Positions 4,743-27,112 of a DNA stretch of 33,171 bases are shown here, piece after piece. Within the stretch, counting starts at the first letter, position 1. Each line of letters begins with the position of its first letter. This DNA is from Minisyncoccota bacterium. GTDB lineage: Bacteria; Patescibacteriota; Minisyncoccia; Phycocordibacterales; UBA5272. The stretch is taken from contig JAYUCW010000039.1 in the NCBI GenBank assembly GCA_043740125.1, positions 1 through 33,171 on the forward strand. Reading direction: 5' to 3'. The notes under the pieces are model-generated. The model did not search any database. It was given only the letters and a program-made list of their open reading frames with translations, and had not been told where the DNA came from. A program made the position numbers and the translations under genes.

Positions 4743-4745
4743 GTA

Positions 4746-13680: not shown

Positions 13681-13773
13681 CAGTAGGGATCGCCCCTCCT
13701 TCCAGTCGGAACGCACTATTTTTATAGTCGCTTTGCTCATTAAAAATAGGCGCCTACGGTTCGATCCCTACTG
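13681..13773. repeat. 93-nt element with perfect 12-bp terminal inverted repeats that copy the 3' end of the adjacent tRNA-Lys
   Basis: CAGTAGGGATCG (13681-13692) and CGATCCCTACTG (13762-13773). 13758-13773 (GGTTCGATCCCTACTG) equals 16 nt of the tRNA-Lys T-loop/acceptor in the opposite orientation. 13681-13692 is a direct repeat of 13832-13843 inside the tRNA gene. Confidence 0.6.
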
Positions 13774-13825: not shown

Positions 13826-13898
13826 TGTCCCCAGTAGGGATCGAACCTACGACCTGCGGATTAAGAGTCCGATGCTCTACCAGCTGAGCTATAGGGAC
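13826..13898 (-). tRNA. tRNA-Lys (anticodon CTT)
   Basis: Reverse complement is GTCCCTATAGCTCAGCTGGTAGAGCATCGGACTCTTAATCCGCAGGTCGTAGGTTCGATCCCTACTGGGGACA. Anticodon loop CTCTTAA, T-arm GTAGG-TTCGATC-CCTAC. Confidence 0.9.
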
Positions 13899-14156: not shown

Positions 14157-14223
14157 CGAAGAGGCCTAACGCTGCGGTTTGCAAAACCGCCATTCGCGGG
14201 TTCGACTCCCGCCTGCATCTCCA
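14147..14223 (+). tRNA. tRNA-Cys (anticodon GCA), CCA encoded
   Basis: Acceptor GATGCAG/CTGCATC, discriminator T. Anticodon stem GCGGT/ACCGC with loop TTGCAAA. T-arm GCGGG-TTCGACT-CCCGC, then CCA. Confidence 0.85.
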
Positions 14224-14395
14224 AAAATAAGCGAAGCATTTTTTGAGATGCAGGAAGACATGGCCCGCGCCATGTCTGTCGGGAGTCGAAGCGCGCAGCG
14301 ATATTTTGCTAGTAAGCAAAATCGCGAGCGGCGGTCGGCGAGAAACTTTTGCGACGGCAAAATTTTACTTGCCGAAGACATTCCCGCCTGCATCT
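14207..14395 (+). repeat. 14-bp perfect direct repeat of the tRNA-Cys 3' end bracketing a 161-nt G+C-rich hairpin-dense insert
   Basis: TCCCGCCTGCATCT occurs at 14207-14220 (in the tRNA) and at 14382-14395. The insert contains GACATGGC-CCGC-GCCATGTC and other stems, plus GAGATGCAGG complementary to the tRNA 3' end. Confidence 0.7.
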
Positions 14396-14446
14396 ATATA
14401 AAAATCCCACTTAATGTTAGAATAATCCTCACATAGAAATATGCAT

Positions 14447-14528
14447 GCCCGGGTGATGAAATGGTAGACATAAGACACTTAAAATGTCTGGCGCTATGCG
14501 CGTGCGGGTTCGAGTCCCGCCCTGGGCA
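14447..14528 (+). tRNA. tRNA-Leu (anticodon TAA)
   Basis: Acceptor GCCCGGG/CCTGGGC. Anticodon stem AGACA/TGTCT with loop CTTAAAA. Long variable arm. T-arm GCGGG-TTCGAGT-CCCGC. Confidence 0.9.
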
Positions 14529-14606
14529 CAAATAGGTTTTAAGCTAAATAGTCCATACTAAGCATGGGTTTTTTAGTTCTAACTTTTAATTATTTTAAAT
14601 TAAGTT

Positions 14607-14634
14607 TTGAATTAAATTATTTCTTTGTTAGACT
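14607..14634 (+). promoter_or_regulatory. candidate promoter of AT-rich block 1 (TTGAAT - 16 nt - TGtTAGACT extended -10)
   Basis: TTGAAT at 14607-14612 and TAGACT at 14629-14634 preceded by TGT. The ATG at 14641 is only 6 nt downstream. Same architecture as 22235-22262. Confidence 0.4.
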
Positions 14635-14640
14635 TTAAAT

Positions 14641-15876
14641 ATGAATACTTTTATTAATACTTTAGGAAGTCCTTTAGATATAGAAGTTGTTGAACGTAAA
14701 GGAATAGGTCACCCTGATTCCTTAGCAGATATAATTGCTGAGGATTTTTCAAACAAATATTCACTTTACTGTCTAGAACAATTTGGTGTTGTTCTGAACT
14801 ACTGGTTTGATAAGGTAACCATTTCAGGAGGGGTTTGCGATTTGGGTTTTGGTAGGTGTGATGTTTTAAAACCGATTACAATATATTTATTTGGTAGAGT
14901 TACTACAAAATTTGCTAATCATGAAATACCGTTTGAGGACATGTTTAAAGAAAGTTGTCTCAGTGTTTTTCGACAAATTTTTGGAGATACATATCCGAAA
15001 GAGTCTATTAATTTTTTCTTTGATGTGAACAGTGCGCTAGGTGCTGATCATGAAAAAACTTATTATTCTCCAAATTCTGTAGATTCACTAAAAACCTTTG
15101 AAAATTTTACTGCAAATGACACAGTTGTTTGTCATGGATACGCTCCCTATACAAAAACTGAAACTATTTGTATTGCAATTGAAAACTTTCTTAATTCAGA
15201 TTCATTTAAAAATAAATATAGAGCCACAGGCTGGGATATAAAAGTTTTAATAATTCGTGAAAGTAATTCATACAGAATAACAGTTTGTGTTCCTTTTATT
15301 GCTACTAAAACAAAATCTCATGAATTTTATCTAAATTCAAAAAATGAGATCAAAAAAGAGATAAGTGAATTTCTTCAAACTGGTGACTTTTTCTCCAGTA
15401 ATGATAGTTATGAAATCTACTTAAATACAAAGGATCGAGATAATCTCGCATATCTTGTTGCATATGGTTCGGCTGCTGATAAAGGAGATTATGGTGCTGT
15501 TGGAAGAGGAAACAGATACTCTGGTGTAATTTCAGTAAATCGTGGTACGAATGTTGAGGCTGTAAATGGAAAAAATTCTCGAAACCATAGTGGTAAGTTA
15601 TATACTGTTTTGTCTCATTCATTAGCTTCTTTTGTTTACAATAAAACAGGTGAACCATGTCAGGTTATTATTACTACGGATAACGGTAGACCACTTAGTG
15701 ATCCGACTATGGTTGTGGTTCATTTTGATAACAAAGGGTTTAACTTGAACCAAGGCGACGATTTAATAATTAAAAAACACATTAAGATGGTTTTTGATGA
15801 AATTGAAAAACTTTCTTCTCTTATAATATCTCGCAATCCAGTTACTGATTTTAAAAATATTTTTATCTATGCTTAA
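14641..15876 (+). CDS. archaeal-type S-adenosylmethionine synthetase (methionine adenosyltransferase)
   Basis: VERKGIGHPDSLAD, NDTVVCHGYAPYTKTE, DIKVL, YGSAADKGDYGAVGRGNRYSGVIS and GKNSRNHSGKLY align along the whole length with the archaeal MAT family as I recall it (Methanocaldococcus type). Confidence 0.8.
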   Translation: MNTFINTLGSPLDIEVVERKGIGHPDSLADIIAEDFSNKYSLYCLEQFGVVLNYWFDKVTISGGVCDLGFGRCDVLKPITIYLFGRVTTKFANHEIPFEDMFKESCLSVFRQIFGDTYPKESINFFFDVNSALGADHEKTYYSPNSVDSLKTFENFTANDTVVCHGYAPYTKTETICIAIENFLNSDSFKNKYRATGWDIKVLIIRESNSYRITVCVPFIATKTKSHEFYLNSKNEIKKEISEFLQTGDFFSSNDSYEIYLNTKDRDNLAYLVAYGSAADKGDYGAVGRGNRYSGVISVNRGTNVEAVNGKNSRNHSGKLYTVLSHSLASFVYNKTGEPCQVIITTDNGRPLSDPTMVVVHFDNKGFNLNQGDDLIIKKHIKMVFDEIEKLSSLIISRNPVTDFKNIFIYA

Positions 15877-16429
15877 AATAATATTAATTGGTGGAGGAGA
15901 TTTAACCGAAGAATCACTTTTAAAAATAAAAGAGGAAGCTACTTCAAGTTTTTTAAAATCAAAGAATATTAAGACAATGATTATCCCGTTTGCAAGATAC
16001 GAAGAGGATTGGGAAGCTGTATACACTAAAAATATAACCAAGTATGCCTGTGATGATTACAAGTATACTTTTATGTACCCGAGTAAAGATCATAATGCTT
16101 TTCTGGAACAGTTAAATGATTCAGAATTAGTAATTATCCCCGGAGGCAGTGAATTAAGCCTTATAAAAAATTTACCAGAGCTTTCAAGTGCTAATTTTGA
16201 TAATAAAGTAATAATTGCAACATCTGCTGGAACTAATTTTTTAGCTAGTTCATATTATTCTAACGATAGAGATGAGTTTGCTGTGGGTTCTAATATTTTA
16301 AAGATAAATACAATTTGTCATTTTAAAGATGATGTAATTGATAAGGTAAAAGTATTAACAGAATTAAATGGTCTACCAACTTTTACACTAAGAGAAGGTG
16401 ATTTTATTGTGTTATATGAAAGTAAATAA
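15869..16429 (+). CDS. peptidase S51 (PepE/cyanophycinase-fold) family hydrolase
   Basis: IIPFARYEEDWEAVYTK, LVIIPGGSELSLIKN, IIATSAGTNFLA (nucleophile Ser) and TICHF (His) parallel the E. coli PepE motifs. 8-nt overlap with the upstream gene. Confidence 0.6.
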   Translation: MLKIILIGGGDLTEESLLKIKEEATSSFLKSKNIKTMIIPFARYEEDWEAVYTKNITKYACDDYKYTFMYPSKDHNAFLEQLNDSELVIIPGGSELSLIKNLPELSSANFDNKVIIATSAGTNFLASSYYSNDRDEFAVGSNILKINTICHFKDDVIDKVKVLTELNGLPTFTLREGDFIVLYESK

Positions 16430-16919
16430 TTCCATTTTAAATTTTTTGGAGGTGTATTCTAAAAATTGTCATATTGATGCAATAGATAGTGTGGTTGTGC
16501 TTCTTAAACCTGATTATCCTGAAGATAAAAAAATGTCTTTTTTATCCTATTGTAATGAAAAGTCGTTAAAGATTATATTTAATGATTCTTCTATTTTAAA
16601 TAAAGAAAAAATTTTCGGTATTTATTATGATCTTTTTAGACAAAAAGACGATGATCTGAAGTACGGAATACTATGGAAATTAAAATTAATTGACTATTTA
16701 ACAAGTGGAAAGTCTAATTATTACCTAATTCAAGGTGTTAATGCGCAAGAATTATTAAATAATTATAAAAAAGTGATTAGATTGGAATACGATAAAATCA
16801 CAACACCAAAGGAAGTAATGAGTGAAGATGTTTTTTTTGAAAAAGTTATCAAGAATTTAATCCATGTTACAAATACAGAAGAATTTGTTCCAACTTGTTG
16901 GTTTTTATTTATAAAATAA
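16416..16919 (+). CDS. divergent nucleoside-diphosphate-kinase-like protein
   Basis: VVVLLKPDYP (NDK: FSIIKPNAV), LKIIF...KIFGIY, LIDYLTSGKSNYYLIQG (NDK: LVEFMTSGPIVVSVLEG) and NLIHVTNTEE (NDK: NGTHGSDSVE, His kept). Start set at ATG 16416, overlapping the previous stop by 14 nt. Confidence 0.45.
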   Translation: MKVNNSILNFLEVYSKNCHIDAIDSVVVLLKPDYPEDKKMSFLSYCNEKSLKIIFNDSSILNKEKIFGIYYDLFRQKDDDLKYGILWKLKLIDYLTSGKSNYYLIQGVNAQELLNNYKKVIRLEYDKITTPKEVMSEDVFFEKVIKNLIHVTNTEEFVPTCWFLFIK

Positions 16920-16922
16920 ACT

Positions 16923-18278
16923 ATGGAAAAAAGAGAAAAAATCTCCAAGAGTTTTGAAGATGGTAACGAGGAAGAGTGGGGAAGTATTTTTCGGTTAGGT
17001 GTTTCTCCTGTAAAAGCAAATTTTCGTATTGGTCCACTACGATCCCATCTATATAATTATGTTTATGCTAGTAATGAAAAATTAAAAAATAAAGATTCAA
17101 GGGTTTATTTTCGTGTTGATGATTCAAACCAAGAAAAAGGAGACAGAGAAATGTCTGAAAAACTTTTTTATTTTTTCTCTGAAACTCTCGGGATGGAATT
17201 TGATCAACAAGAAGACAACAGTCAGATGATTTTTCAATCCGAAAGGGTTGATTTATACCGTGAGTATTTAGAAAAATTATTTGATGTTGGTGTGGTTTTC
17301 TTAGATAAAGAATCTGGATTAACTCTTTTTGATATTGAAAAATTTATTGATATATATGGAGAAACAATACAATTTCATGATGTTGTAAGAGGTCAAGTAG
17401 TTTTAAAATTAAAGAAACTTTTAGATAAACAAAAGTTTTTTCCTTTAGTGAGGTCAAATGGTTCAGTGCTCTATCACTTAGCTTCTGTTGCAGACGATCA
17501 TCTTCTCGGTGTTACGCATGTTGTCCGTGGTGCGGATAAGCTATCGGTTGCACAATATCAAGAAATGGTAAGAATTGCACTTGATTTGGAGCCTAAAAAA
17601 TTTATGCACACACCTCTTATGTTGGATGATGAAGGTGGTTTATTAAAAGGCGATGTTTTATATGACTCTTTTATTAAAAAAGGTATTTTGCCTCAAGCGA
17701 TGTTGTCTTATATGATTTCATCAGGTTATGGTGACCCAGATATGATCTATGATTCAATAGAGGCTATTGTGGAAGATTTTGATTACAAAAAAGTAAGACA
17801 AAATAATGGTAAATTTGATTTTAAAAAACTAGTTAGTGTAAATAGAAAAATTTTGTCTAGTGTTAGTGATGAAGATTATTCTATTTCATTAAGACTATAT
17901 TCCGCAAAAATAAATAGAGAAGATATGCATTATGACCTTAATAATGAGATAGAGTTGGCACCTCTTTTTTCAAAACTAAAAATACCATTTGAAAAAACTG
18001 AAGTGTTTTATGATACTTTAGACAGGCCAGATTATTCTGGTATTAAAACCCTTGATATAGAAACTAGGAATGAACTTGATTTGCTTATTGAGGAATTTAA
18101 GCTTGATAGTTTTGATTATAAAGATTATTTTTATTCTTCAAATAAGAATAAGATAAGAGCCTTAAAATTTTTCCTTATTGGTGATTTACAGGTTTCTGGT
18201 GGTTTAGTTGAGATAACAGAATATTTGATTTCTAAAAATTTGATTTCTAAAAGATTAGAAATGTTAAGTGGTTTGTAG
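16923..18278 (+). CDS. glutamyl-tRNA-synthetase-like class I paralogue lacking HIGH and KMSKS signatures
   Basis: [26 protein letters not shown] versus [36 protein letters not shown] versus [36 protein letters not shown] versus [32 protein letters not shown] sits where KLSKR should be. Confidence 0.75.
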   Translation: [451 protein letters not shown]

Positions 18279-18333
18279 TCTGTGAATTTATATTGTCTTA
18301 TTTTGTTTTTTTGTTAATGTAGTATCTAAGAGT

Positions 18334-18519
18334 GTGGGGTAAAATTATTTATTCACCCAATTCTTCAGGTTTGGAATGTATGGAATCACCTCAGACTTCA
18401 TCAGTTCAGTTCTAACCCTTCACAGGGCTGCGATTTTAACAAGTCGGGAGCCCTAAGACTGCATTTTCAATAACCTGATTATAGGTTAAGAAAACGGGAG
18501 CATTGTCTGTTAGGGTTAC
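18334..18519 (-). pseudogene. decayed 3' gene remnant, copy 1 of 3
   Basis: Minus strand encodes VTLTDNAPVFLTYNQVIENAVLGLPTC*, then after a roughly 30-nt insertion and a stop, RVRTELMKSEVIPYIPNLKNWVNK*. Homologous to 19981-20151 and 26958-27074. Confidence 0.6.
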
Positions 18520-18593
18520 ATTGAAAAAAACTCTCAGAAATAAAAGATTTTTTCTTACCCTGTTTTGCCGTTTGAACTGATATACTATTTGAT

Positions 18594-19331
18594 ATGAAAA
18601 AAGTCTTATTCTTCGATATGTACCAGACACTTATCGATACACAAATAGGTGACAAAAAGGAAATTGTAGAAAATGCCTATAAACAAGTTTTTTCTCATTT
18701 CTTGATTGAGAAAGGTATTGAGGTAGATCAAGCTAATAATTTCCAGTCAAATTACAAAAAACTTCAAGATGAATTTTACACAAGCCACGACAAAGAAAAA
18801 GAACATCATGACTTTAAAGTAATACTTAAAAAAACTTTTTCAGACTATTATCAAATTGATATTGATGAGAAAGTTTTGGTAGAACTTATCTGGCAGTATA
18901 GAAAATTAACAAGAGGCGATACTAAACTATATCCTGACGTTAAAGATACTTTAGAGTTGCTCTCCCATGAGTATTCTCTGTATCTTGCTAGTTATACGCA
19001 AGCTTGCTATTCATTATTAGAAATAGAAGAGCTTGGAATTAAGGATTACTTTAAAGGGTTTATTTTTTCTTCTGATATTGGTTATAAAAAAATGAGTGAC
19101 GGATTTTATTTAAAGTGTATAGAAGTTTCAGGGGTGTCTCCAGAAGATTGTGTTATGGTTGGTGATAATAAACTTGAAGATATGTATATGGCAAATAAAA
19201 ATAAAATGTTGACTGTATGGATTAAAAATCCTATTACAGTTAATAATGTGTCTAACGAGCCAATTGCACCCACGAAAGAGTTGGACCTAAAAGATTTTAG
19301 TAAATTGGGTGAGTTACTCTCAACAATCTAA
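18594..19331 (+). CDS. HAD-superfamily hydrolase (subfamily IA-like, D-x-Y type motif I)
   Basis: Motif I FFDMYQTLID, motif II region LASYT, motif IV VMVGDNKLEDM. Confidence 0.7.
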   Translation: MKKVLFFDMYQTLIDTQIGDKKEIVENAYKQVFSHFLIEKGIEVDQANNFQSNYKKLQDEFYTSHDKEKEHHDFKVILKKTFSDYYQIDIDEKVLVELIWQYRKLTRGDTKLYPDVKDTLELLSHEYSLYLASYTQACYSLLEIEELGIKDYFKGFIFSSDIGYKKMSDGFYLKCIEVSGVSPEDCVMVGDNKLEDMYMANKNKMLTVWIKNPITVNNVSNEPIAPTKELDLKDFSKLGELLSTI

Positions 19332-19335
19332 CTAT

Positions 19336-19983
19336 ATGGAAAATTTCTTAAAAAGCAATAATCAAGAAGAGATAAAGCCTCCTAAGACTGAAAGAGATTC
19401 TCAGTTAAACCCTTCAATTGGAATTGAAGAGGCAGTAAAACTACAATCTGTTCTAGATAGGTATACAGATAAGAGAGTTCTTGTCGTCGGTCCTCCGGCT
19501 TCAGGTAAAAGCACCTTGCTTCAACATGTACCAAGTGGAGTTGATATGGATAATGCTCTTTTTGACACAATGCCAAAAAGAGAAAAAGATTTTGCACTTC
19601 AACGAGAGAAACCTTACATGCTTACAGACCCAACCTCTAAAGGTTATCAAAAAACAATTAAGTATGTGCAAAGAGAATTTAATCCAAATGATGAGCAGAA
19701 TGTTACTGATTTTCATTTGTCAGCAGACTTTCTGACCACGTATATAAATGCTCATACAAAAATTGAGGCAGGTAAACCATTCTTTGCAACGAACGTGATT
19801 GATTCTGATGTTATTGTTTATCTGAAACTATCTGATGAAGAATATAAAAAAAGATTAGAATTAAGAAATAAGACAAATAGACCGCAACAAGTAGAGAAAG
19901 CTTTTGCTATAAAAGGTGATATTGAAAAGCATATAGCTATTGCAAGAAATAATGGAGTGATAGTAGAAGAGCTTGAGATGTAG
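19336..19983 (+). CDS. P-loop NTPase, small nucleotide/nucleoside-kinase-like protein
   Basis: Walker A VVGPPASGKSTLL. Its size and the helical lid-like region suggest an AAA_33/adenylate-kinase-like fold. Start set at ATG 19336, just after the HAD stop. Confidence 0.55.
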   Translation: MENFLKSNNQEEIKPPKTERDSQLNPSIGIEEAVKLQSVLDRYTDKRVLVVGPPASGKSTLLQHVPSGVDMDNALFDTMPKREKDFALQREKPYMLTDPTSKGYQKTIKYVQREFNPNDEQNVTDFHLSADFLTTYINAHTKIEAGKPFFATNVIDSDVIVYLKLSDEEYKKRLELRNKTNRPQQVEKAFAIKGDIEKHIAIARNNGVIVEELEM

Positions 19984-20151
19984 TGTCACCCACTGTGGGG
20001 TAAACTAAACTTTCTCAGCCCATGCTCTCAAATTCGGCATATAAGGAATTACTTCACTCTTCATCAATTCAGTTCTAACCCTAGACAGGACTGCATTTTC
20101 AAAAACATGATTACATGTCAAGAAAAGGGAGCCTTGTCTATTAGGGTGCAC
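19981..20151 (-). pseudogene. decayed 3' gene remnant, copy 2 of 3
   Basis: Minus strand encodes CTLIDKAP, then a 1-nt deletion, then ...FLTCNHVFENAVLSRVRTELMKSEVIPYMPNLRAWAEKV*. Shares both end points with copies 1 and 3. Confidence 0.6.
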
Positions 20152-20156
20152 AAATT

Positions 20157-20183
20157 TAAAAATCTGACTAAAGTCAGTTTTTA
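20157..20183 (+). terminator. rho-independent terminator closing block 1
   Basis: AAAAATCTGAC-TAA-AGTCAGTTTTT. Confidence 0.55.
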
Positions 20184-20200
20184 AATGCTACACTATATCC

Positions 20201-20800
20201 ATGAAACTCATTTCAAAATATTTTCCACATTTACTTTTACTTGCGTACATTATTGAATTTATTGTTCTCGCTATTAAACCATACGATCGTGCTGTATGGT
20301 TCACAGAGAACTTCACTATCATTCCGATAGTTGCGATTCTTATTATTTTATATGTTTGTAAAGTGAGATTTTCTAATCTTGCATATGCGCTCATGAGTGT
20401 TCTTGTCTTCATGCATACCTATGGGGGACACTATACCTTTGCTCTCGCACCTTTTGATTGGTTCAATCACATGTTCGGCTTCCAAAGAAATATGTATGAT
20501 AGAGTTGCACACATGACGGTCGGATTTTATGCATACGCAATGATCGAAGCGCTTATTAGATATAAAGTGGTCAACCAAAAGTGGTTCGCATACTTCGCAT
20601 CGTTTATGATTATCCCAGCTATTGCAGCTTTTTATGAAATCTTCGAATGGCGATACGCTGTTAGCTCTGACCCAGCTGCAGGCTTAGCAGTTCTTGGTTC
20701 ACAAGGGGATATTTGGGATGCACAGAAGGATATGCTTATGGATACAATAGGGGGAGTAATAGGTACGGTGATGTACTTCATTTTTCGCCGAGAAAAATGA
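20201..20800 (+). CDS. YjdF-like (DUF2238) inner membrane protein
   Basis: WFTENF..., HTYGGHYTFALAPF and QRNMYDRVAHMTVGFYAYAMIE match the DUF2238 pattern from memory. Confidence 0.6.
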   Translation: MKLISKYFPHLLLLAYIIEFIVLAIKPYDRAVWFTENFTIIPIVAILIILYVCKVRFSNLAYALMSVLVFMHTYGGHYTFALAPFDWFNHMFGFQRNMYDRVAHMTVGFYAYAMIEALIRYKVVNQKWFAYFASFMIIPAIAAFYEIFEWRYAVSSDPAAGLAVLGSQGDIWDAQKDMLMDTIGGVIGTVMYFIFRREK

Positions 20801-20858
20801 TATCGAAATGATCACATTTCGATATAGACTTTATAAGCAAAGTAACGTATACATCTGT

Positions 20859-21542
20859 TTAAAGAAATTCTTCCGGAGCATCTGTTGCGAAAAAATACTT
20901 TTCACCACCAATCTCAAACATGAGTGTCTTAGCATGAAGCATAATACGAGGGGAGTCATGAGTGCTTCCATATGCTTTATCACCAATGATTGGATGTCCG
21001 ATATGAGACGTATGTGCACGGAGTTGATGAGTGCGACCAGTCTTTGGGGTGAGCTCTACCAGTGTGGTATTTTCTTTTTCATTTCGTGTGATAACTTTTA
21101 CCTCTGTGACTGCAGCACGTAATTCTCCTCGAGGGTTCGTAGGATTAACCTGTTGCTTATAGTCTTTTTTATTGCGGCCTAGTGGAGCGTCTATCGTGAA
21201 CTCGGTCTCGGTAATAATTCCTTCAACTAGAGCAAGGTACGTTTTCTTTGTGACGTGATTTCTGAATTGTGATTTTAGTTCATCAAACGTTTCTTTATTT
21301 TTTGAGATCACCATCACGCCAGAAGTATCACGGTCTAATTTGTGAACAATACCTCCAAGATTTATTGTTCGTTTATCTTGTAGGGTTACAGGGTTATCAA
21401 TACCAAAAATATCTGGTACATGTGTCATCAAAAAATCAATAAGTGTTTCTTCAGTGGAATAGTCAAAAGGATGGACCACGAGTCCAGAGGGTTTATTGAT
21501 AACCAAGATATTTGTATCCTCGAATATGACAGAGATAATCAT
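20859..21542 (-). CDS. RluA-family pseudouridine synthase (no S4 domain)
   Basis: VINKPSGLVVHP, HKLDRDTSGVMV (catalytic Asp motif) and GRTHQLRAH. Start trimmed to ATG 21542 because the longer ORF (to 21821) runs through tRNA-Leu(TAG). Confidence 0.85.
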   Translation of the reverse strand: MIISVIFEDTNILVINKPSGLVVHPFDYSTEETLIDFLMTHVPDIFGIDNPVTLQDKRTINLGGIVHKLDRDTSGVMVISKNKETFDELKSQFRNHVTKKTYLALVEGIITETEFTIDAPLGRNKKDYKQQVNPTNPRGELRAAVTEVKVITRNEKENTTLVELTPKTGRTHQLRAHTSHIGHPIIGDKAYGSTHDSPRIMLHAKTLMFEIGGEKYFFATDAPEEFL

Positions 21543-21591
21543 AAGTAGCACTCTACCATATTTTAGTGTATAATCTCTAGACAAATAAGAA

Positions 21592-21676
21592 GCCCAGGTG
21601 GTGAAATTGGTAGACACATCAGTCTTAGGAACTGATGCCGCAAGGCGTGAAGGTTCAAGTCCTTTCCTGGGCACCA
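21592..21676 (+). tRNA. tRNA-Leu (anticodon TAG), CCA encoded
   Basis: Acceptor GCCCAGG/CCTGGGC. Anticodon stem TCAGT/ACTGA with loop CTTAGGA. Long variable arm. T-arm GAAGG-TTCAAGT-CCTTT(C). TATAAT lies about 18 nt upstream. Confidence 0.9.
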
Positions 21677-21748
21677 CGAAAAAATTCCTTAGAAATAAGG
21701 GATTTTTTCTTACACTGTATTTTACGTTGGAACTGATATACTTTAACC

Positions 21749-22189
21749 ATGTTTCGTAAAGGAGTCTCTGCCTTAATAATAAACAAGAATCAAGAGTTTT
21801 TGCTTGTAAACTTACAGTCATTTAAAGTTCATTTTTTCGCTGTCCCTGGAGGTGGTTTAGAAGATGATGAATCACTTGAAGAAGCTGTATACCGTGAAGT
21901 ACAAGAAGAGGTTGGGATACATAAAGAATCCCTTAAATGTATTGGAGCAAGTAAACAACCTGTACAGTTTAAGTTAAATCTTAATCGTGATGGGAAAGCA
22001 TATGAAGGTTCAGAGAGATATTTTTTTGGCTTTAGATTTATAGGAAATGATGATGAAATAAAATTACAAGAGTCCGAAGTACGTTCATATAAATGGGTGT
22101 CATTCAATGATTTAAAAGGCTATCTCCTTTTTGATAATCAGCTAGAAGAAACATCAGAGAAAATTATAGAACTATTTCCCTTTTTGTAA
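21749..22189 (+). CDS. NUDIX hydrolase
   Basis: Nudix box GGGLEDDESLEEAVYREVQEEVGI. Confidence 0.85.
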   Translation: MFRKGVSALIINKNQEFLLVNLQSFKVHFFAVPGGGLEDDESLEEAVYREVQEEVGIHKESLKCIGASKQPVQFKLNLNRDGKAYEGSERYFFGFRFIGNDDEIKLQESEVRSYKWVSFNDLKGYLLFDNQLEETSEKIIELFPFL

Positions 22190-22234
22190 ACAGAAGTAAG
22201 TAACCAGTTATTGATTAATCTGATTACAAGAGTT

Positions 22235-22262
22235 TTGAAATCTATCTTTTTCTTGTTAGAAT
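22235..22262 (+). promoter_or_regulatory. candidate promoter of the six-gene sub-operon (TTGAAA - 16 nt - TGtTAGAAT extended -10)
   Basis: TTGAAA at 22235-22240 and TAGAAT at 22257-22262 preceded by TGT. ATG at 22269. Confidence 0.4.
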
Positions 22263-22268
22263 GGCACT

Positions 22269-22955
22269 ATGAAAGAAACTCCTGAAAGTAGACAAATATC
22301 AAAAGTTGATTCTGATATCAATAGTGTTGAGAATAATTTTTCTAAAATAAAAAATTCGACTCATTGTCCATTTGCAGATAAGTCAAATATACAATATTTT
22401 GAATCATGGAATAGATATAAAACTTTTGATGAAAATTTAGTAGCATTAGCAGAAGAACTAGTAGTATTTACTCATAAATGTGAAGAAGAAAAGATGGATG
22501 GTTTTATCTTTGAAGTTTCTGGCGACAATTTACCTATGAATTTGCAGGATTTGTCATCTTTGTTAAAACATGTACTTTTAAAATTAAATGAGCTAGACCC
22601 AAAAAAAGATGACTGTATGTCTAAAGATATTTCTGCGCCTGGTTGGCAGTTCGTATTTAATGGACAAAGAATTTTTATGATTACATTCGGATCTTTTTAT
22701 AGTGAAGATAGTCCAAGATACTCTATGAATAAAGATTCAACTTTTATTTTCATGCAACCCGAATCATCTTTCCATTTACATATCATAAATCCAGCAAAAT
22801 CACCCCAGACACTAAAATTAAAAGAAAAAATCAGAAGTGCTTTCGTAGAAGGAGGGAAACCTTATAATACTGAAATTGTCGATAGTCCATCTGACGCTAT
22901 TAAATACATTAAACCGCTTCATAAAAATGACTCACATATAGAGTGGTGGAAATAA
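22269..22955 (+). CDS. YqcI/YcgG-family protein (family of heme-dependent N-oxygenases such as GntA)
   Basis: STHCPFA near the N-terminus and GWQFVFNGQRIFMITFGSFYSEDSPRYSMNKDSTFIFMQPESSF match the YcgG C-terminal pattern W-x-F-x-F-x-G ... F-Q-P as I recall it. Confidence 0.55.
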   Translation: MKETPESRQISKVDSDINSVENNFSKIKNSTHCPFADKSNIQYFESWNRYKTFDENLVALAEELVVFTHKCEEEKMDGFIFEVSGDNLPMNLQDLSSLLKHVLLKLNELDPKKDDCMSKDISAPGWQFVFNGQRIFMITFGSFYSEDSPRYSMNKDSTFIFMQPESSFHLHIINPAKSPQTLKLKEKIRSAFVEGGKPYNTEIVDSPSDAIKYIKPLHKNDSHIEWWK

Positions 22956-22960
22956 ATTAT

Positions 22961-23920
22961 ATGCAAAATAACAAGATAGGAATAATAACAACTTCTGCTC
23001 CGATTAAAAAACTTGATATAGATATGGTGAGGTCAGGGTATACCTACCTATTAAAAAATGGTTTTGAAGTTTTTGAACACCCAAGCTGTCAATTGGAAAA
23101 TGGATATATGGCAGGGAATGTTGACGATAGAGTAGAAGCAATTCATGATTTGGTTAAAGATAAGACAGTTGATATTATAATGGCTTTTTGGGGCGGAGAC
23201 AATACGAATCAGCTTCTAGATAAGTTAGACTATGACTTAATAAAAAATAATCCAAAAATATTTATTGGCTACTCGGACACAAGTAGTTTATTAAATGCAA
23301 TTCATGTAAAAACTGGCCTAGTTACATACCTTGGGCCTGCCGTTATTACTTTTTGTAAACCTAACATTTTCCCGGAGAGTATTTTCTATTTTAAAAAAGT
23401 TGTGAGCGAACGAGGTCTAAAACAAACATTGGTACAACCAACACTTTACGCTAAAGACGCATACTACAAAAGAAGCGATAATCAAAGAATTATAGAGAGT
23501 AACGATGGTTGGAAGGTATTGAGACATGGAGTTGTTTCTGATAAAAAAATAGTTGCAATATGTTTGTCGATGTTACAATCATTACTCTCTACACCGTATG
23601 AACCAGATCTTAAAGGAAAAGTTCTTTTTTGTGAAATAGATGAATCCATAAAAATAGAAGCATTCGATAGGATGGTTGTACAGCTTAAACAAACGGGTAT
23701 TTTGGATACTATTGCTGCTTTTGTATTTAGTAAGGCGACAGATGAATCAAATATTAATGAAATAGATATAGTAAAAGTTTTGGAAGAGAACATAAAGAAT
23801 GATATTCCAATTATTTATAATTTTGACTGTGGTCACACGGATCCTGTTATCACTATTCCAGTCGGTGGTTATTGTGATATTAATACGAAGGACGGTGTTT
23901 CTATTTCTGTGAGTTATTAA
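22961..23920 (+). CDS. S66-family serine peptidase (LD-carboxypeptidase / MccF-like)
   Basis: IGIITTSAPI, FWGGDNTNQLL, FIGYSDTSSLL (nucleophile Ser), CEIDE and DCGHTDPVITIPVG (His) follow the LdcA/MccF layout. Confidence 0.75.
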   Translation: MQNNKIGIITTSAPIKKLDIDMVRSGYTYLLKNGFEVFEHPSCQLENGYMAGNVDDRVEAIHDLVKDKTVDIIMAFWGGDNTNQLLDKLDYDLIKNNPKIFIGYSDTSSLLNAIHVKTGLVTYLGPAVITFCKPNIFPESIFYFKKVVSERGLKQTLVQPTLYAKDAYYKRSDNQRIIESNDGWKVLRHGVVSDKKIVAICLSMLQSLLSTPYEPDLKGKVLFCEIDESIKIEAFDRMVVQLKQTGILDTIAAFVFSKATDESNINEIDIVKVLEENIKNDIPIIYNFDCGHTDPVITIPVGGYCDINTKDGVSISVSY

Positions 23921-23933
23921 CCTTATTGTAGGT

Positions 23934-25067
23934 ATGATGTTTAATGAAAACTTTGAAACAAAACCCTTTGAAAAGGCTTCCAACATCGAATCTTTAGATA
24001 GGGTAAAAAGTTCATTCCTAAATCAACTAAAATATGACGATTTTTCATTACAAGTTAACAATGGTTTAGGTGTACATGATGATGAGACATTACTATTTGC
24101 AAACTCTACAATGGCTACACATAAGAAGGAAATTATATCAGACTCATTACCTGAAAATGGTTTAGCAATTTCTCAGAAATGTTTACGTATGAGAAGTTTG
24201 GCACACTTTCTTGATAGAAGTTCTGATTTTGGTTTTAACTCATACTTTACAATGGTTGGTATGTTGTTTGGTGGAGAATCATCTAGAAATATTTTAAATC
24301 AAACTCTTACTTTTCTAACAAGTCAGGGTTTTGACATTAAAAGATTATTTATAAAAACTGGTTCAGACTGTAAGAATGTTAATAAATCAATTATTGGTTT
24401 TAGTGAGAAAAAAACTATTCAAGACTCCGAAAGCGAATCATATTATAAATGGGCTTATGGTATTGAAGGGGTTGTAGGAGAAGGTCTCACGTTTACATAC
24501 TTTTTTCCAGATGGTTCCTATAAAGACTTAGGTAACATTATTTGTGTAGTTGATGAAGCTTCAGGAAAAATTAAGGCCTGGGAATCTGGTTTTGGGGTTG
24601 AGACATTGATTGCTGTGAGAGACGGTAAGGATTTATTTGAAACTCACCCCATTTGGGATGTTCTCCAATATGAAAGAAATCCGGATTTAAAAAAAGTTGC
24701 AGATTCTGTTGTTTCTGTTATTGAAATAATAAGAGAAGGAGTGCTTATTGGTTCGAAGAAACAGGGGTATATTTTAAAAAAATTTCTTAATGTTATATAT
24801 TATATAAACAAAGACTTACATTTGGATCTAAGAAAGGTTGTAACTGAATACTGTGAGCATATGAAATATGAGAATGGAGAGACAATAGCAGAAACAATTA
24901 TTTCATACTTAGAACAAATTGATTCTTCTAAACAGAAGAACTTAGAAGCTTTTAAGAAATTCTTGAAGAGTAATGGAAACTTAACTGAGCGCCAGAAAAT
25001 AGATATAGCAAAAAGTTCCTTTTCATTGGAGCTTTCTGAAATTAAGGATTTATTACAATTAATATAA
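23934..25067 (+). CDS. alanyl-tRNA-synthetase catalytic-core-like class II paralogue (377 aa; no editing or C-Ala domains)
   Basis: DDETLLFANSTMATHKKEI versus NDPTLLFTNAGMNQFKDVF. SQKCLRMRS versus SQRCVRAGG. YFTMVGMLFGG versus FFEMLGNFSFG. ESGFGVETLIAV versus DTGMGLERIAAV. KKQGYILKKFLN versus ENRGYVLRRIIR. Confidence 0.7.
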   Translation: MMFNENFETKPFEKASNIESLDRVKSSFLNQLKYDDFSLQVNNGLGVHDDETLLFANSTMATHKKEIISDSLPENGLAISQKCLRMRSLAHFLDRSSDFGFNSYFTMVGMLFGGESSRNILNQTLTFLTSQGFDIKRLFIKTGSDCKNVNKSIIGFSEKKTIQDSESESYYKWAYGIEGVVGEGLTFTYFFPDGSYKDLGNIICVVDEASGKIKAWESGFGVETLIAVRDGKDLFETHPIWDVLQYERNPDLKKVADSVVSVIEIIREGVLIGSKKQGYILKKFLNVIYYINKDLHLDLRKVVTEYCEHMKYENGETIAETIISYLEQIDSSKQKNLEAFKKFLKSNGNLTERQKIDIAKSSFSLELSEIKDLLQLI

Positions 25068-25094
25068 CTCATAATATGGTATTATTCTAGTAAT

Positions 25095-25901
25095 ATGAAA
25101 GAAGAAATTTTAAATCTCAATTACACTGACTTTGTCGGCTTCATTAATCAATGGAATGTCCTCCCTGGTGCACATGTAACACTTTCAAAATGGGTAACTT
25201 TTAGTGGAGTTAACGCCGATTCACATATACTAGAACTTGCATGCACTTCTGGCTTTTCATCTCGAGAAATTGCAATTATGACTGGGTGTGCTGGTGTTGG
25301 TATTGATATTTCTGCACCATCAGTTGAAGCCGCTATTTTGAATAAGAAGGTATATGCACCAGGTATTAAAATTACTTATGAAGTTGCAGACGGTCATATT
25401 TATGAACCAGAAGAAAAATTTTCACACGTAGTAGTTGGCGCAGCTCTAAAATTTTTTGGTAACCAAAAAGAAGTAACTGAGAGAATAGTTTCAAAATATC
25501 TTAAAGATGGCGGTTTTTTGTTAGCTTCACCTTTTTTTGCTGTGAGGACAGTTCCTCAGGAAGTTATTGATAGGGCTCGTGAGGTTTTTGGTATTACAAT
25601 AACAACAGAATCATATAAGGAGGCAATGAAGGCATACTCAGATTTTGAAATCATATATGAAGATAAGTGTGATTTGATTGAGGAGACAGAAGAGGAGCTG
25701 AGTGTTTACTGTACAGCAACAGTAGCTAGAGCTGCAGATTTCCACGGAATAGTGGATAATGAAGTAAAGCAAGTTATGTACGCAAGACTACTAGAGATAA
25801 GAAGAATGACTAATGTTCTTAGAGGATATCAAAACTACACAGTACTGGTATTGAGGTATAGAAAAAGTGTGTACCCAAATAGGTATGTGGAATTATTTTA
25901 A
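25095..25901 (+). CDS. class I SAM-dependent methyltransferase
   Basis: Motif I ILELACTSGFSS, followed by GIDIS and a downstream acidic/aromatic pattern typical of the Rossmann methyltransferase fold. Confidence 0.7.
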   Translation: MKEEILNLNYTDFVGFINQWNVLPGAHVTLSKWVTFSGVNADSHILELACTSGFSSREIAIMTGCAGVGIDISAPSVEAAILNKKVYAPGIKITYEVADGHIYEPEEKFSHVVVGAALKFFGNQKEVTERIVSKYLKDGGFLLASPFFAVRTVPQEVIDRAREVFGITITTESYKEAMKAYSDFEIIYEDKCDLIEETEEELSVYCTATVARAADFHGIVDNEVKQVMYARLLEIRRMTNVLRGYQNYTVLVLRYRKSVYPNRYVELF

Positions 25902-25906
25902 AAGTA

Positions 25907-26407
25907 ATGATTTTAACAGGCAAAGAAATTACACGAGAAGTTTCTAGCGGGAATATTTCTATTACCCCTTTTTTTCTTGATCAGATTAATCCTAATAGTT
26001 ACAATTATAGACTTGGGGAGACACTTAAAGTTTTCTCACAATTTGATGGAGTTAAGTCACTTTTTGAAGAAGTAAGGATTCCCAAAGAAGGGTATGTTCT
26101 TGAGCCAAATAAAATGTATTTAAGTACTACCAGCGAAGAGATAGGTAGTAGCGTATATGCAATGTCTCTTATCGGTAGAAGTTCGATGGGGCGGCTTGGG
26201 CTTTTTCTCCAGGTTTCAGCGGATCTCGGACATACAACTTCATGCCATAATTGGACGCTTGAATTAGTTGCTTCACATTCTATAAGGGTTTATCCTTGGA
26301 TGGTAATCGGGCAGGTTTCTTTTTGGGAGAATAAAGGAGAGCATAATGACTACGATGGTTTTTATGGAAATAAAAATAATGTCCAAGAATCAATTATTTT
26401 TATATAG
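25907..26407 (+). CDS. dCTP deaminase (Dcd/dUTPase-fold) family protein, copy 1
   Basis: MILTGKEI...ISITPF...NPNSYNYRLG, GRSSMGRLGLFLQVSA and WTLELV (catalytic Glu kept) parallel the E. coli Dcd motifs. Confidence 0.75.
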   Translation: MILTGKEITREVSSGNISITPFFLDQINPNSYNYRLGETLKVFSQFDGVKSLFEEVRIPKEGYVLEPNKMYLSTTSEEIGSSVYAMSLIGRSSMGRLGLFLQVSADLGHTTSCHNWTLELVASHSIRVYPWMVIGQVSFWENKGEHNDYDGFYGNKNNVQESIIFI

Positions 26408-26414
26408 TAAAATT

Positions 26415-26933
26415 ATGATTTTAACAGGAAATGAAATTAAATCAGAGGTAGGTTTGGGTAAGATAAAGATTGAGCCTTTTGATATAAATCATTGTACAAC
26501 TAATTCGTACGATTTATGTCTTGGTAATGTTCTTATTCAATATATCGAGGATGTCTTAGACCCTAAAAAAGAAAATAAATATCGAGAATTGGTTATACCT
26601 AAAGAGGGTATGATTTTGCCAAAAAATTCTTTCTTTCTTGGTTCTTCTAAAGAGAAAATTGGAAGTAATTTTTATGTTCCGATGATACATGCTAAGTCAG
26701 GAGTGGCAAGACTCGGATTATTTGTGCATGTCACAGCAGACCTTGTTGACATTGGTTACTATGGAGAAATAACTTTCCAGTTGTATGCTACCTTGCCTGT
26801 AAAAATTTATCCCGGAATGAAATTAGGACAAGTTTCTTTTTGGGTGCCAAAGGGTGAGATTAATCTATATAATGGTAAATATCAGAATAGTACTGGTCCA
26901 CAAGTTTCTAAAACCTATCAAGATTTTAGTTAA
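26415..26933 (+). CDS. Dcd-fold paralogue, copy 2, with altered catalytic positions
   Basis: MILTGNEI...IKIEPF...TTNSYDLCLG, then AKSGVARLGLFVHVTA (GRSS to AKSG) and ITFQLY (Glu to Gln). Start set at ATG 26415, 8 nt after copy 1. Confidence 0.7.
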   Translation: MILTGNEIKSEVGLGKIKIEPFDINHCTTNSYDLCLGNVLIQYIEDVLDPKKENKYRELVIPKEGMILPKNSFFLGSSKEKIGSNFYVPMIHAKSGVARLGLFVHVTADLVDIGYYGEITFQLYATLPVKIYPGMKLGQVSFWVPKGEINLYNGKYQNSTGPQVSKTYQDFS

Positions 26934-26957
26934 TTTTTATTTAGTAGTATATTATAT

Positions 26958-27074
26958 AGTGTCACAGACTGTGGGGTAAATCACGCTTTTTCTACCCAAG
27001 CTCGCAGATTCGGTATGTAAGGAATCACCTCACTTTTCATCAATTCAGTTCTAACATTGTCTATTAGGGTGCAC
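26958..27074 (-). pseudogene. decayed 3' gene remnant, copy 3 of 3 (internal in-frame deletion)
   Basis: Minus strand encodes CTLIDN-VRTELMKSEVIPYIPNLRAWVEKA* in one frame. About 75 nt is missing relative to copy 2, with the breakpoint right after GTTCTAAC. Confidence 0.6.
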
Positions 27075-27079
27075 AACAT

Positions 27080-27112
27080 AAAAAATGAGATGTCGAAAGA
27101 CATCCATTTTTT
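27080..27112 (+). terminator. rho-independent terminator closing block 2
   Basis: GAGATGTC-GAAA-GACATC(C) followed by ATTTTTT. Confidence 0.55.

Follow-up and report, generated by a model that had tools for sequence, protein, structure and literature searches.

Synthetase paralogues and aminoacyl-nucleotide-amide hydrolase families in three framed modules downstream of two tRNA-Leu genes of a Patescibacteria genome

The stretch of DNA analysed here, hereafter the window, comprises the 33,171 nucleotides of contig JAYUCW010000039.1 (assembly GCA_043740125.1), which belongs to a Minisyncoccota bacterium of the Patescibacteria; the metagenome-assembled genome GCA_043780875.1, as well as several metagenome assemblies, contains the same sequence. 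Downstream of two tRNA-Leu genes, 13 open reading frames (ORFs), all in the same orientation, form three compositionally foreign and separately framed modules, called here A, A′ and B. Module A holds an archaeal-type S-adenosylmethionine (SAM) synthetase (MAT), an S51-family hydrolase, an NDK-like protein and a paralogue of glutamyl-tRNA synthetase (GluRS-like); module A′ consists of an HAD phosphatase and a P-loop kinase; and module B contains a NUDIX hydrolase, followed by a YqcI/YcgG protein, an S66 hydrolase, a truncated relative of alanyl-tRNA synthetase (AlaRS-like), a methyltransferase and two proteins with the dCTP-deaminase fold (DCD1 and DCD2). Modules A and B share one design: a paralogue of an aminoacyl-tRNA synthetase (aaRS) with degenerate adenylation motifs, but with its pocket and tRNA-binding parts kept, is coupled with a member of a family of aminoacyl-nucleotide-amide hydrolases. 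The pair of module A is formed by the class I GluRS-like protein and S51 (PepE/MccG family), that of module B by the class II AlaRS-like protein and S66 (MccF clade), and each pair has enzymes that handle nucleotides and SAM as its neighbours.

Three framed modules and their boundaries

Module A is anchored on its left by tRNA-Leu(taa) (14447-14529) and module B by tRNA-Leu(tag) (21592-21676), both recognised by ARAGORN and Rfam (coordinates are those of the window, and features lie on the plus strand unless a minus sign is given). The MAT gene starts 111 nt past the end of the former tRNA and the NUDIX gene 72 nt past the end of the latter. The original prediction, made from the letters and their ORFs, had described two tRNA-Leu genes with 13 co-oriented genes behind them, which agrees with ARAGORN, Rfam and the ORF layout. 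It had also placed the genes within each sub-operon less than 30 nt apart or in overlap, a description that fails between the NUDIX and YqcI/YcgG genes, separated by 79 nt that include a promoter-like site for the latter, and between the GluRS-like and HAD genes, which are 315 nt apart. The overlap once seen between DCD1 and DCD2 disappears, since the start of DCD2 is most likely at 26415, its orthologues beginning with MILTG. In the antisense direction, tRNA-Leu(tag) is crossed by a long ORF for an RluA-type pseudouridine synthase (320 aa, 20859-21821 (-)), as well as by the database gene call (272 aa); translation of this gene probably starts from the Met at 21542, which gives 227 aa and coincides with the beginning of the Pfam match.

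The compositional difference between the gene blocks and their flanks, which had been deduced from spot counts, is confirmed by three measures. The G+C content is 30.5% in the block downstream of tRNA-Leu(taa) and 32.7% in that downstream of tRNA-Leu(tag), against 40.3% in the left flank, 38.1% between the blocks and 40.8% in the right flank (43.3% in topA, 41.3% in rel and 40.9% in infB). The G+C fraction at third codon positions (GC3) ranges from 0.18 to 0.28 in the block genes versus 0.27 to 0.50 in the flank genes. Finally, tetranucleotide usage normalised for base composition correlates less between blocks and flanks (r 0.52-0.59) than between independent halves of the flanks (0.75-0.80), with a value of 0.69 between the two blocks. 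The division into two blocks, however, gives way to one into three modules, as the positions of two repeats, called R and L, reveal.

The R repeat, of ~120-190 nt, closes all three modules. Its three copies in the window map to 18317-18520, as the 3′ frame of module A, to 19978-20163 and to 26954-27086, and the last two are followed by terminator-like hairpins (20164-20177 and 27089-27104, respectively); the first two share an extra conserved insert of ~55-85 nt. The minus strand of R carries a micro-ORF, which is broken by a stop in the first copy and encodes 48 aa in the second (20005-20151 (-)) and 40 aa in the third (26981-27103 (-)), and which terminates in VRTELMKSEVIPY(I/M)PNL(K/R).W..K before the stop codon (also written as CTLIDNVRTELMKSEVIPYIPNLRAWAEKV plus stop). 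Over the 23 aligned codons that precede the first stop, 18 keep the same amino acid, with 11 synonymous-only differences and five replacements, four of which fall in the last six codons; one of the synonymous changes is a TCT to AGT (or reverse) serine switch. This pattern of substitution is a coding signature. The idea that the micro-ORF is a piece of a larger gene was rejected, as an exhaustive HMMER search against 1.84 billion representatives retrieved only seven proteins, six with lengths of 41-92 aa and a seventh with 203 aa, which share nothing beyond the ~30-aa motif. A known RNA was also discarded for both repeats, with no Rfam match at either gathering or permissive thresholds and a weak consensus fold for R, and so was the idea that the distal end of R could be a decayed 3′ end of tRNA-Leu (an attR), since the alignment was no better than with shuffled sequences save for an A/T-rich tail. 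The core of R, the 9-mer AGTTCTAAC, also occurs at 14575-14583, 46 nt 3′ of tRNA-Leu(taa).

The L repeat is a leader of 64-70 nt, with a hairpin and a TG-extended -10 box 6-7 nt before an ATG, which opens modules A′ and B. Its first copy (18523-18593) shows the extended -10 box TGATATACT 7 nt before the ATG of the HAD gene and, together with the first R copy, occupies the 315-nt gap between the GluRS-like and HAD genes, whereas the second copy (21678-21748) abuts the 3′ end of tRNA-Leu(tag) and has its extended -10 box 6 nt before the ATG of the NUDIX gene. Such a geometry implies putatively leaderless mRNAs. Similar promoter geometries are found 5′ of MAT (TGTTAGACT, by eye) and 5′ of the YqcI/YcgG gene (22235-22262).

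Profile searches located both repeats in two of the loci of relatives that were fetched for comparison, which are labelled L012 to L037. In L025, with L at 437-499 and R at 954-1036 and 4741-4792, the order is L-NUDIX-R-MAT-S51-NDK-like-GluRS-like-R, so that a NUDIX gene 74-76% identical to that of the window is framed by L and R directly upstream of module A. In L035, an unrelated ORF of 136 aa is framed by L (978-1039) and R (1413-1535). Remnants of a tRNA-Leu 3′ end lie 5′ of L in both loci (p ~0.0005 in L025, by inspection in L035). The same L to R frame around different cargo indicates that these repeats bracket interchangeable contents, and that their linkage to tRNA-Leu recurs.

The region recalls tRNA-associated islands and integron cassettes in its AT-rich and co-oriented cargo 3′ of tRNA genes, its repeated 3′ element and its swappable frames. 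Unlike those systems, it shows multi-gene modules with their own promoters, and neither an integrase nor IntI was found among the window genes in the Pfam and NCBIfam scans; moreover, R measures 120-190 nt and carries a coding-like antisense micro-ORF instead of the imperfect palindrome of an attC site. An exact att duplication was not found at the module boundaries either, so the region lacks the integrase and the distal direct repeat of a tRNA 3′ end that define a tRNA-integrated island. In a comparison for empty-site variants among close strains, all the contigs with an identical DUF2238 protein showed the same layout. The only mobile-element gene near the blocks, 2.8 kb away, is a truncated IS30-family transposase (218 aa, NF033563 1.3e-25) at 29736-30392. 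In any case, L/R-framed modules are previously undescribed, and offer a separate lead on how cassettes move in genomes with no obvious recombinases nearby.

Module A and the accessory module A′

The first gene of module A encodes MAT (14641-15876), a divergent SAM synthetase of the archaeal type (AdoMet_Synthase PF01941, 2e-82), whose best NCBIfam score, 317 bits, falls below the cut-off of 481. It is followed by the S51-family serine hydrolase of the PepE/MccG family (15869-16429; Peptidase_S51 PF03575, 1.5e-8), in which the Ser (SAG(T/A)N, SAGTN in the window) and the His (CHF) are invariant among 10 orthologues, together with a subfamily motif YYSNDR. The S51 profile matched in the PDB the alpha-aspartyl dipeptidase 7C9B (1.9e-8) and PepE 1FY2 (1.8e-6), with aspartyl dipeptidases ranging from 1.9e-8 to 2.5e-6. 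The third product (16416-16919, 167 aa) has probably the NDK fold. It shows LLKPD and KNLIHVT motifs, which we take to resemble NDK signatures, and the latter is conserved among its homologues, which form three clusters and are present only in closer relatives. Neither Pfam nor NCBIfam matched this protein, and PF00334 did not appear even at E<10; its AF2 model is poor (pLDDT 54), and the top-50 Foldseek hits of this model, with E ~1e-4 and TM values of 0.4-0.5, are nearly all NDKs, so the NDK-like call is moderately supported. Thus, 12 of the 13 domain calls of the original prediction stood in Pfam and NCBIfam, and the NDK-like call is backed by the fold only.

The last gene of the module (16923-18278; tRNA-synt_1c, 1e-22) encodes the GluRS-like protein, which can be aligned over its whole length, C-terminal region included, with T. 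maritima GluRS2. A family alignment corroborates that HIGH and KMSKS, already reported as missing, are lost: the former is replaced by (K/R)IG(P), in the form of FRIG or KKIG (FRIG in the window), and the KMSKS loop is shortened by 3 aa (LLK-G). Moreover, ~36 aa are deleted from the acceptor/Zn insertion between the two Rossmann halves. The glutamate pocket, on the other hand, is kept, with its Arg and the YHLAS and THVVRG motifs, and the anticodon-binding region is retained. The protein is not a canonical GltX, as it scores 138 bits with TIGR00464 against a cut-off of 290, and its homologues are bimodal, with ~50 clusters at 38-80% identity and then the canonical GluRSs at 25-30%. All of these ~50 clusters belong to Patescibacteria where named, and show no detectable Pfam anticodon domain.

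The gene order MAT-S51-NDK-like-GluRS-like recurs in unrelated neighbourhoods at 80%, 63% and 56% identity, and MAT with S51 beside the GluRS-like gene in Magasanikbacteria and Uhrbacteria at 33-44%; taken together, MAT, S51 and the GluRS-like gene co-occur in Paceibacteria, Magasanikbacteria and Uhrbacteria at 33-84% identity. MAT is linked to the other two in L017, L024, L025, L028, L030-L032 and L036, and the S51-GluRS-like pair is also found in a bin labelled Saccharibacteria. Across the cassette genes, relatives carry the labels Paceibacteria, Parcubacteria, Magasanikbacteria, Uhrbacteria, Falkowbacteria and Saccharibacteria. Module A keeps ~31% G+C whatever the G+C content of the host, and is AT-rich with respect to its own flanks elsewhere too. 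Its genes evolve under purifying selection, with dN/dS values of 0.10-0.18 (0.10 for MAT and 0.125 for the GluRS-like gene), within a range of 0.10-0.22 for the genes tested over both modules.

A second variant of the module comprises a canonical GluRS (571 aa), a SAM hydrolase (SAM_HAT), an unknown protein of ~300 aa, a MurG-like glycosyltransferase, S51 and the GluRS-like protein (L018, 4877-11383; L037, 7376-11392). This arrangement hints at a possibly glycosylated product or at an acceptor derived from SAM. The canonical 571-aa GluRS adjoins the S51-GluRS-like pair in L018 and also in L019. Such a context, with S51 always as a neighbour, a coexisting canonical GluRS and repeated SAM enzymes, shows that the GluRS-like protein is a paralogue. 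A search of the literature retrieved nothing on this GluRS-like family or on archaeal-type MATs in the Candidate Phyla Radiation.

Module A′ contains two genes, for an HAD-IA phosphatase (18594-19331), with weak similarity to TIGR02253 and to the YjjG/PynA groups of pyrimidine nucleotidases, and for a P-loop kinase-like protein (19336-19983), which matches AAA_18 and has no other informative relatives in PDB, Pfam or NCBIfam. The HAD-kinase pair was not seen with module A or B in any locus fetched from the relatives.

Module B and the links between the modules

Module B opens with the NUDIX hydrolase (21749-22189), which is probably a unit of its own. The following gene (22269-22955) encodes a protein of the thiolate-haem N-hydroxylase family YqcI/YcgG (YqcI_YcgG, 2e-8; PF08892, 34.6 bits against a cut-off of 27). 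The Cys of its NSTHCPFA motif is conserved between orthologues at 56% identity, and would be a candidate haem ligand, by analogy with the role described for Cys in this family (PMC12866846). The S66 serine hydrolase (22961-23920) shows both N and C domains of Peptidase_S66 and keeps the whole triad, with its Ser (GYSD), His (CGHT) and Glu. It falls in the MccF clade, as it matches B. anthracis and E. coli MccF with values from 1e-40 to 1e-33, ~28 orders of magnitude better than LD-carboxypeptidases of the LdcA type (1e-12 to 1e-6). Its substrate loop aligns with that of MccF, with Tyr or Lys at the positions of the nucleobase-stacking Trp residues.

The AlaRS-like protein (23934-25067, 377 aa; N-terminal part of tRNA-synt_2c, 1e-9) consists of the aminoacylation and tRNA-recognition domains only, and lacks the editing and C-Ala domains. 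Its AF2 model (pLDDT 84.8) superposes on the AlaRS catalytic fragments 3HXU, 1RIQ and 4XEM with TM values of 0.62-0.71. Within the family, an invariant Glu (E217) occupies the position of E. coli D235, and the Arg of motif 3 is lost, replaced by Thr or Ser in a motif that reads GFGVET, while the Arg of motif 2 and the equivalents of W170 and N212 are kept. A canonical AlaS, of ~870 aa with an editing domain and an intact motif 3, is a different protein, as indicated by 39 bits with TIGR00344 against a cut-off of 457. The family is formed by just seven clusters among 5.8 billion.

Downstream of it lie a class I SAM-dependent methyltransferase of the small-molecule type (25095-25901, assigned by a domain match) and two proteins with the dCTP-deaminase fold (PF22769). 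DCD1 (25907-26407) keeps the Ser/Arg and the catalytic Glu (WTLEL) and lacks DxGFxG; DCD2 (26415-26933) has lost the catalytic Ser (KSGVAR, Ser to Gly) and Glu (TFQL, Glu to Gln) and keeps DIGxxG. Neither chain combines Ser, Arg and Glu with DxGFxG, and this complementary degeneracy is conserved in L012 and L014, which points to a putative heteromeric, non-canonical enzyme. DCD2 shows a dN/dS of 0.10.

In relatives at 44-55% identity, the S66-AlaRS-like pair is syntenic with DCD1, DCD2 and the methyltransferase, with inverted sub-blocks, and is accompanied by YqcI/YcgG in L014 and by an ATP-grasp ligase in L012. More distantly, the locus L013 (1475-12880), next to a resolvase, contains the most divergent AlaRS-like relative (29% identity) together with S66, an extra full-length LeuRS, an ABC transporter, two sulfatase-family genes, a PNP/UDP (nucleoside) phosphorylase and NIF3, and may represent a different cluster of the aminoacyl-nucleoside type with a resistance synthetase.

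Modules A and B, each on its own, are thus syntenic in divergent relatives, while the notion of the 13 genes as a single fixed toolkit does not survive: module A is conserved across classes of Patescibacteria and widespread without module B, which is very rare and also occurs without module A, and the HAD-kinase pair accompanies neither. The links between the modules are real but loose. One of them is the NUDIX homologue beside module A in L025, and another is L036 (6361-11311), at the end of a 374-kb contig, where a single operon comprises MAT (302 aa), an AlaRS-like protein (389 aa), S51, a methyltransferase and the GluRS-like protein. The AlaRS-like protein of L036 is a distant homologue of the window family (hhalign 95%, E = 4e-8); an orthology between the two methyltransferases was not supported.

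Given that every fold in the modules is a housekeeping fold, the set could be regarded as housekeeping or salvage genes that evolve fast in a reduced genome. MAT would then be the sole SAM synthetase, DCD1 and DCD2 a dCTP deaminase and a dUTPase for dTTP supply, the NUDIX, HAD, kinase and NDK-like proteins salvage enzymes, S51 and S66 factors for peptide or cell-wall recycling, and the aaRS-like proteins relics, with low expression as the cause of the AT-richness. Patescibacteria do depend on salvage, and DCD2 reaches 107 bits against the NCBIfam dCTP deaminase cut-off of 92.8. Nevertheless, DCD2 lacks the catalytic Ser and Glu, a canonical Dcd of 368 aa is encoded in the thyA-folA-glyA-tmk cluster of one relative, and the canonical GluRS coexists with its paralogue in others. 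With seven AlaRS-like and ~50 GluRS-like clusters, most Patescibacteria do without these proteins, the modules shift genomic position between close relatives while staying at ~31% G+C whatever the host, and purifying selection rules out relics. The earlier claim that these are not ordinary housekeeping copies finds further backing in the AlaRS-like protein, a two-domain fragment of 377 aa with the D235 to Glu change and no motif-3 Arg, and in the GluRS-like protein, a member of a Patescibacteria-only family that stands beside a 571-aa canonical enzyme, all of which makes the housekeeping explanation improbable.

A second alternative is the manipulation of nucleotide pools against phages, in which the DCD-like, NUDIX and kinase/phosphatase proteins would deplete or alter dNTPs upon infection. 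Defence systems based on dCTP deaminases exist, the modules are mobile and island-like, and PADLOC gave weak matches for the kinase (VakA, 1e-5) and the NUDIX protein (PDC-S07, 1.5e-9). Against it, PADLOC returned nothing for either aaRS-like protein, S51, S66, YqcI/YcgG or MAT, DCD2 is catalytically degenerate, the cores of aaRS-like proteins and hydrolases would be left unexplained, and close phage homologues were not found, all of which makes this explanation highly improbable. The assignment to a known defence system was likewise discarded, as the PADLOC search, which covered 10 of the 13 block proteins (all except the methyltransferase, DCD1 and DCD2), produced only weak accessory matches, including Hydrolase (PDLC03008) at 5.4e-8. 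A phage origin was also rejected: the R pattern was not found in viral contigs, and phage genomes gave only matches at the level of canonical aaRSs.

Possible chemistry of the two pairs

Proteins similar to aaRSs but with degenerate adenylation sites are already known as aminoacyl-tRNA-dependent transferases onto nucleoside-like acceptors (PMC12945691). In the biosynthesis of ascamycin by Streptomyces sp. 80H647, AcmF, a truncated AlaRS-like protein with aminoacylation and tRNA-recognition domains, lacks ATP-binding residues, carries the changes N219Q and D232E, and moves Ala from Ala-tRNA to a nucleoside sulfamate (PMC12945691). AcmD, an extra canonical AlaRS, provides the Ala-tRNA and makes the producer resistant to its own compound, the product is hydrolysed by AcmE, and SbzA is an IleRS-like, class I analogue of AcmF, which keeps HYGH and AMSKA (PMC12945691). 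The AlaRS-like protein of the window shares with AcmF the two-domain architecture, the loss of ATP-binding residues and the Asp to Glu change, although it keeps the Asn (equivalent to N212) that AcmF replaces by Gln, and the GluRS-like protein goes further than SbzA, having lost both HIGH and KMSKS. Like the ascamycin system, the modules include a hydrolase that could remove the aminoacyl group, and relatives of module A show an extra canonical synthetase; unlike it, the window has no sulfamate-forming genes, the hydrolases belong to S66 and S51 and not to the alpha/beta-hydrolases, and the host is a member of the Patescibacteria and not an actinomycete.

By analogy with these enzymes, modules A and B could be tentatively read as a system for the aminoacyl-tRNA-dependent synthesis, and the hydrolysis, of aminoacyl-nucleoside or aminoacyl-nucleotide conjugates, a reading that we favour over the alternatives and consider plausible, if not quite probable. 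Following AcmF and SbzA, the GluRS-like and AlaRS-like proteins would not activate amino acids with ATP, but would take Glu-tRNA or Ala-tRNA charged by the canonical synthetases and hand over the aminoacyl moiety to an acceptor, a nucleoside or nucleotide, bound in the former adenylate site. The acceptor of module A may be derived from SAM or adenosine, provided or modified by MAT and the NDK-like protein, and that of module B may be a modified cytidine or uridine nucleotide, obtained through DCD1/DCD2, the methyltransferase, the YqcI/YcgG N-hydroxylase and the NUDIX protein. The resulting conjugates would be mimics of aminoacyl adenylates and, as such, possible aaRS inhibitors, whereas S51 and S66 would carry out the reverse reaction for self-immunity or turnover. 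The HAD-kinase pair would be an independently acquired accessory for phosphate handling. The original prediction had already proposed an aminoacyl-nucleotide theme, which comes out strengthened by the literature on AcmF/SbzA (PMC12945691) and on MccG/MccF (PMC9239234). Its more specific suggestion of a pyrimidine substrate fares less well, as only the two DCD-like proteins favour it and module A points to SAM or adenosine chemistry. There is no described counterpart of this composition, as had also been remarked, even if aaRS-like, tRNA-dependent aminoacyl-nucleoside chemistry and hydrolases of the MccF/MccG type are already known.

Several observations weigh against this synthesis and hydrolysis system. 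Neither module contains an enzyme known to form a sulfamate, a phosphoramidate or a similar acceptor, and the ORFs of the blocks encode neither an MccB-type (ThiF/E1-like) enzyme nor a precursor peptide nor an exporter, a lack that is unusual for a secreted antibiotic. The insertion of canonical GluRSs contacts the acceptor arm of the tRNA, and the loss of part of it in the GluRS-like protein could argue against the use of aminoacyl-tRNA. The AlaRS-like protein of L036 keeps both the motif-3 Arg and the Asp (at the D235 position), and may be an ordinary adenylating enzyme, while MAT could be the only SAM synthetase of the genome, linked to the other genes for different reasons. As a single sequence, S51 did not match any solved S51 structure in the PDB, and its assignment stands at the level of the family. 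Finally, the likeness to the ascamycin proteins is drawn from their description in a review, and all the data come from metagenome-assembled genomes or metagenome contigs.

The GluRS-like protein also invites a comparison with GluQRS (YadB), a paralogue of the GluRS catalytic domain with a non-translational role, the glutamylation of queuosine in tRNA-Asp. By extension, the modules could serve the modification of a macromolecule: the target aminoacylated by the aaRS-like proteins would be a tRNA base, like that of GluQRS, a cell-wall precursor such as UDP-MurNAc-peptide, in a logic similar to that of Fem/MurM, or a protein, whereas S51 and S66 would trim the products and the SAM-related enzymes and the methyltransferase would methylate them. 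The retained anticodon-binding-like region, the glycosyltransferase beside the S51-GluRS-like pair in L018 and L037 and the fact that S66 is also a family of LD-carboxypeptidases are in line with this possibility, as is a weak NCBIfam match to GluQRS. That match reaches, however, 76 bits for a cut-off of 277. GluQRS is a protein of ~300 aa in which the anticodon-binding domain is absent and the ATP-activating motifs persist, just the opposite of a family of 430-480 aa that has kept the C-terminal region and lost HIGH and KMSKS. Moreover, S66 is far nearer to MccF than to LdcA, and the DCD pair, the N-hydroxylase and the NUDIX protein would have no obvious role, so that a macromolecular target is distinctly unlikely.

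Microcin C systems offer the other obvious comparison, as they employ both hydrolase families: processed microcin C is cleaved at its carboxamide bond by MccF (S66) and by MccG (S51), the MccG of N. vaccinii preferring cytidylates (PMC9239234). The S66 protein of the window belongs to the MccF clade and has an intact triad. In Yersinia, the cytidylate-type mcc operon encodes a methylase and a YqcI/YcgG protein (PMC4010828), a combination that module B recalls with its own YqcI/YcgG and methyltransferase genes near enzymes of nucleotide chemistry; all the characterised YqcI/YcgG enzymes are thiolate-haem N-hydroxylases of antimicrobial pathways (PMC12866846). A cytosine nucleotide is also hinted at by the DCD folds. 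The differences from the microcin C systems, including those with MccS and MccX, are also clear, since MccB (ThiF-like), MccA, the MccC exporter and MccD/E are missing, the methyltransferase is not similar to CmoA/MccS, and an amide bond would here have to be made by the aaRS-like proteins.

A further alternative is that the modules form an island for resistance only. The hydrolases would detoxify imported aminoacyl-nucleotide antibiotics, of the microcin C or ascamycin kind, the aaRS-like proteins would bind the inhibitors as decoys or sensors and the remaining enzymes, for nucleotide salvage, would travel along with them. Most MccG homologues are indeed standalone resistance genes (PMC9239234), MccF-like genes occur outside mcc clusters, and in L013 the S66 gene is found together with a full-length LeuRS that is an extra copy, a classic arrangement of resistance; the absence of an exporter, MccB and a precursor peptide, mentioned above, would also be accounted for. 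On the other hand, this view leaves unexplained the conserved partners of both modules, namely the methyltransferase, DCD1/DCD2, YqcI/YcgG and the ATP-grasp protein in module B, and MAT, the NDK-like protein and the glycosyltransferase in module A, and a decoy would not require conserved residues resembling an active site under a dN/dS of ~0.1. A role restricted to resistance seems, all in all, unlikely.

Returning to the tRNA-dependent synthesis and hydrolysis of conjugates, a broader and more doubtful extension of it would be that exchangeable cassettes framed by L and R build adenylate mimics without MccB, through class I and class II scaffolds that work in reverse from aminoacyl-tRNA and with S51/S66 immunity, as a previously unknown chemical weapon or means of host control in ultra-small, episymbiotic Patescibacteria, and that they spread through a mechanism linked to tRNA-Leu, with no integrase and marked by the R micro-ORF. 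Bacteria of the Candidate Phyla Radiation are usually described as metabolically minimal, with little secondary metabolism. If the synthesis is real, Patescibacteria would gain a plausible route to molecules similar to aaRS inhibitors, or a layered defence against them, a matter relevant to the competition of episymbionts with their hosts or to the control of those hosts. The concept derived from AcmF and SbzA would, in turn, be extended by a new class I family, the GluRS-like proteins, with ~50 clusters confined to Patescibacteria, and by a new class II family of seven clusters. The modules define candidate pairs of enzymes for the chemoenzymatic synthesis of aminoacyl-nucleosides, and the L036 operon is the best candidate for the heterologous reconstitution of the whole pathway.

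Some minor features of the window lie outside the modules. An ORF of 331 aa at 28538-29533 (-), with no family match in the scans, has 47.5% G+C and a GC3 of 0.50, a bias opposite to that of the modules in a genome of ~40% G+C. Upstream of module A, the 3′ end of tRNA-Cys, TCCCGCCTGCATCT, is repeated 175 nt downstream (14207-14402) around a GC-rich insert of ~155 nt, part of which resembles by eye a stretch of L025 (~290-330), an arrangement reminiscent of a miniature insertion flanked by an att-like duplication. Finally, the region of the tRNA-Lys T-arm, GGTTCGATCCCTACTG, forms a perfect inverted repeat of 16 nt (13758-13773 and 13832-13847, with 58 nt in between), which suggests a tRNA fragment in inverted orientation beside tRNA-Lys(ctt).

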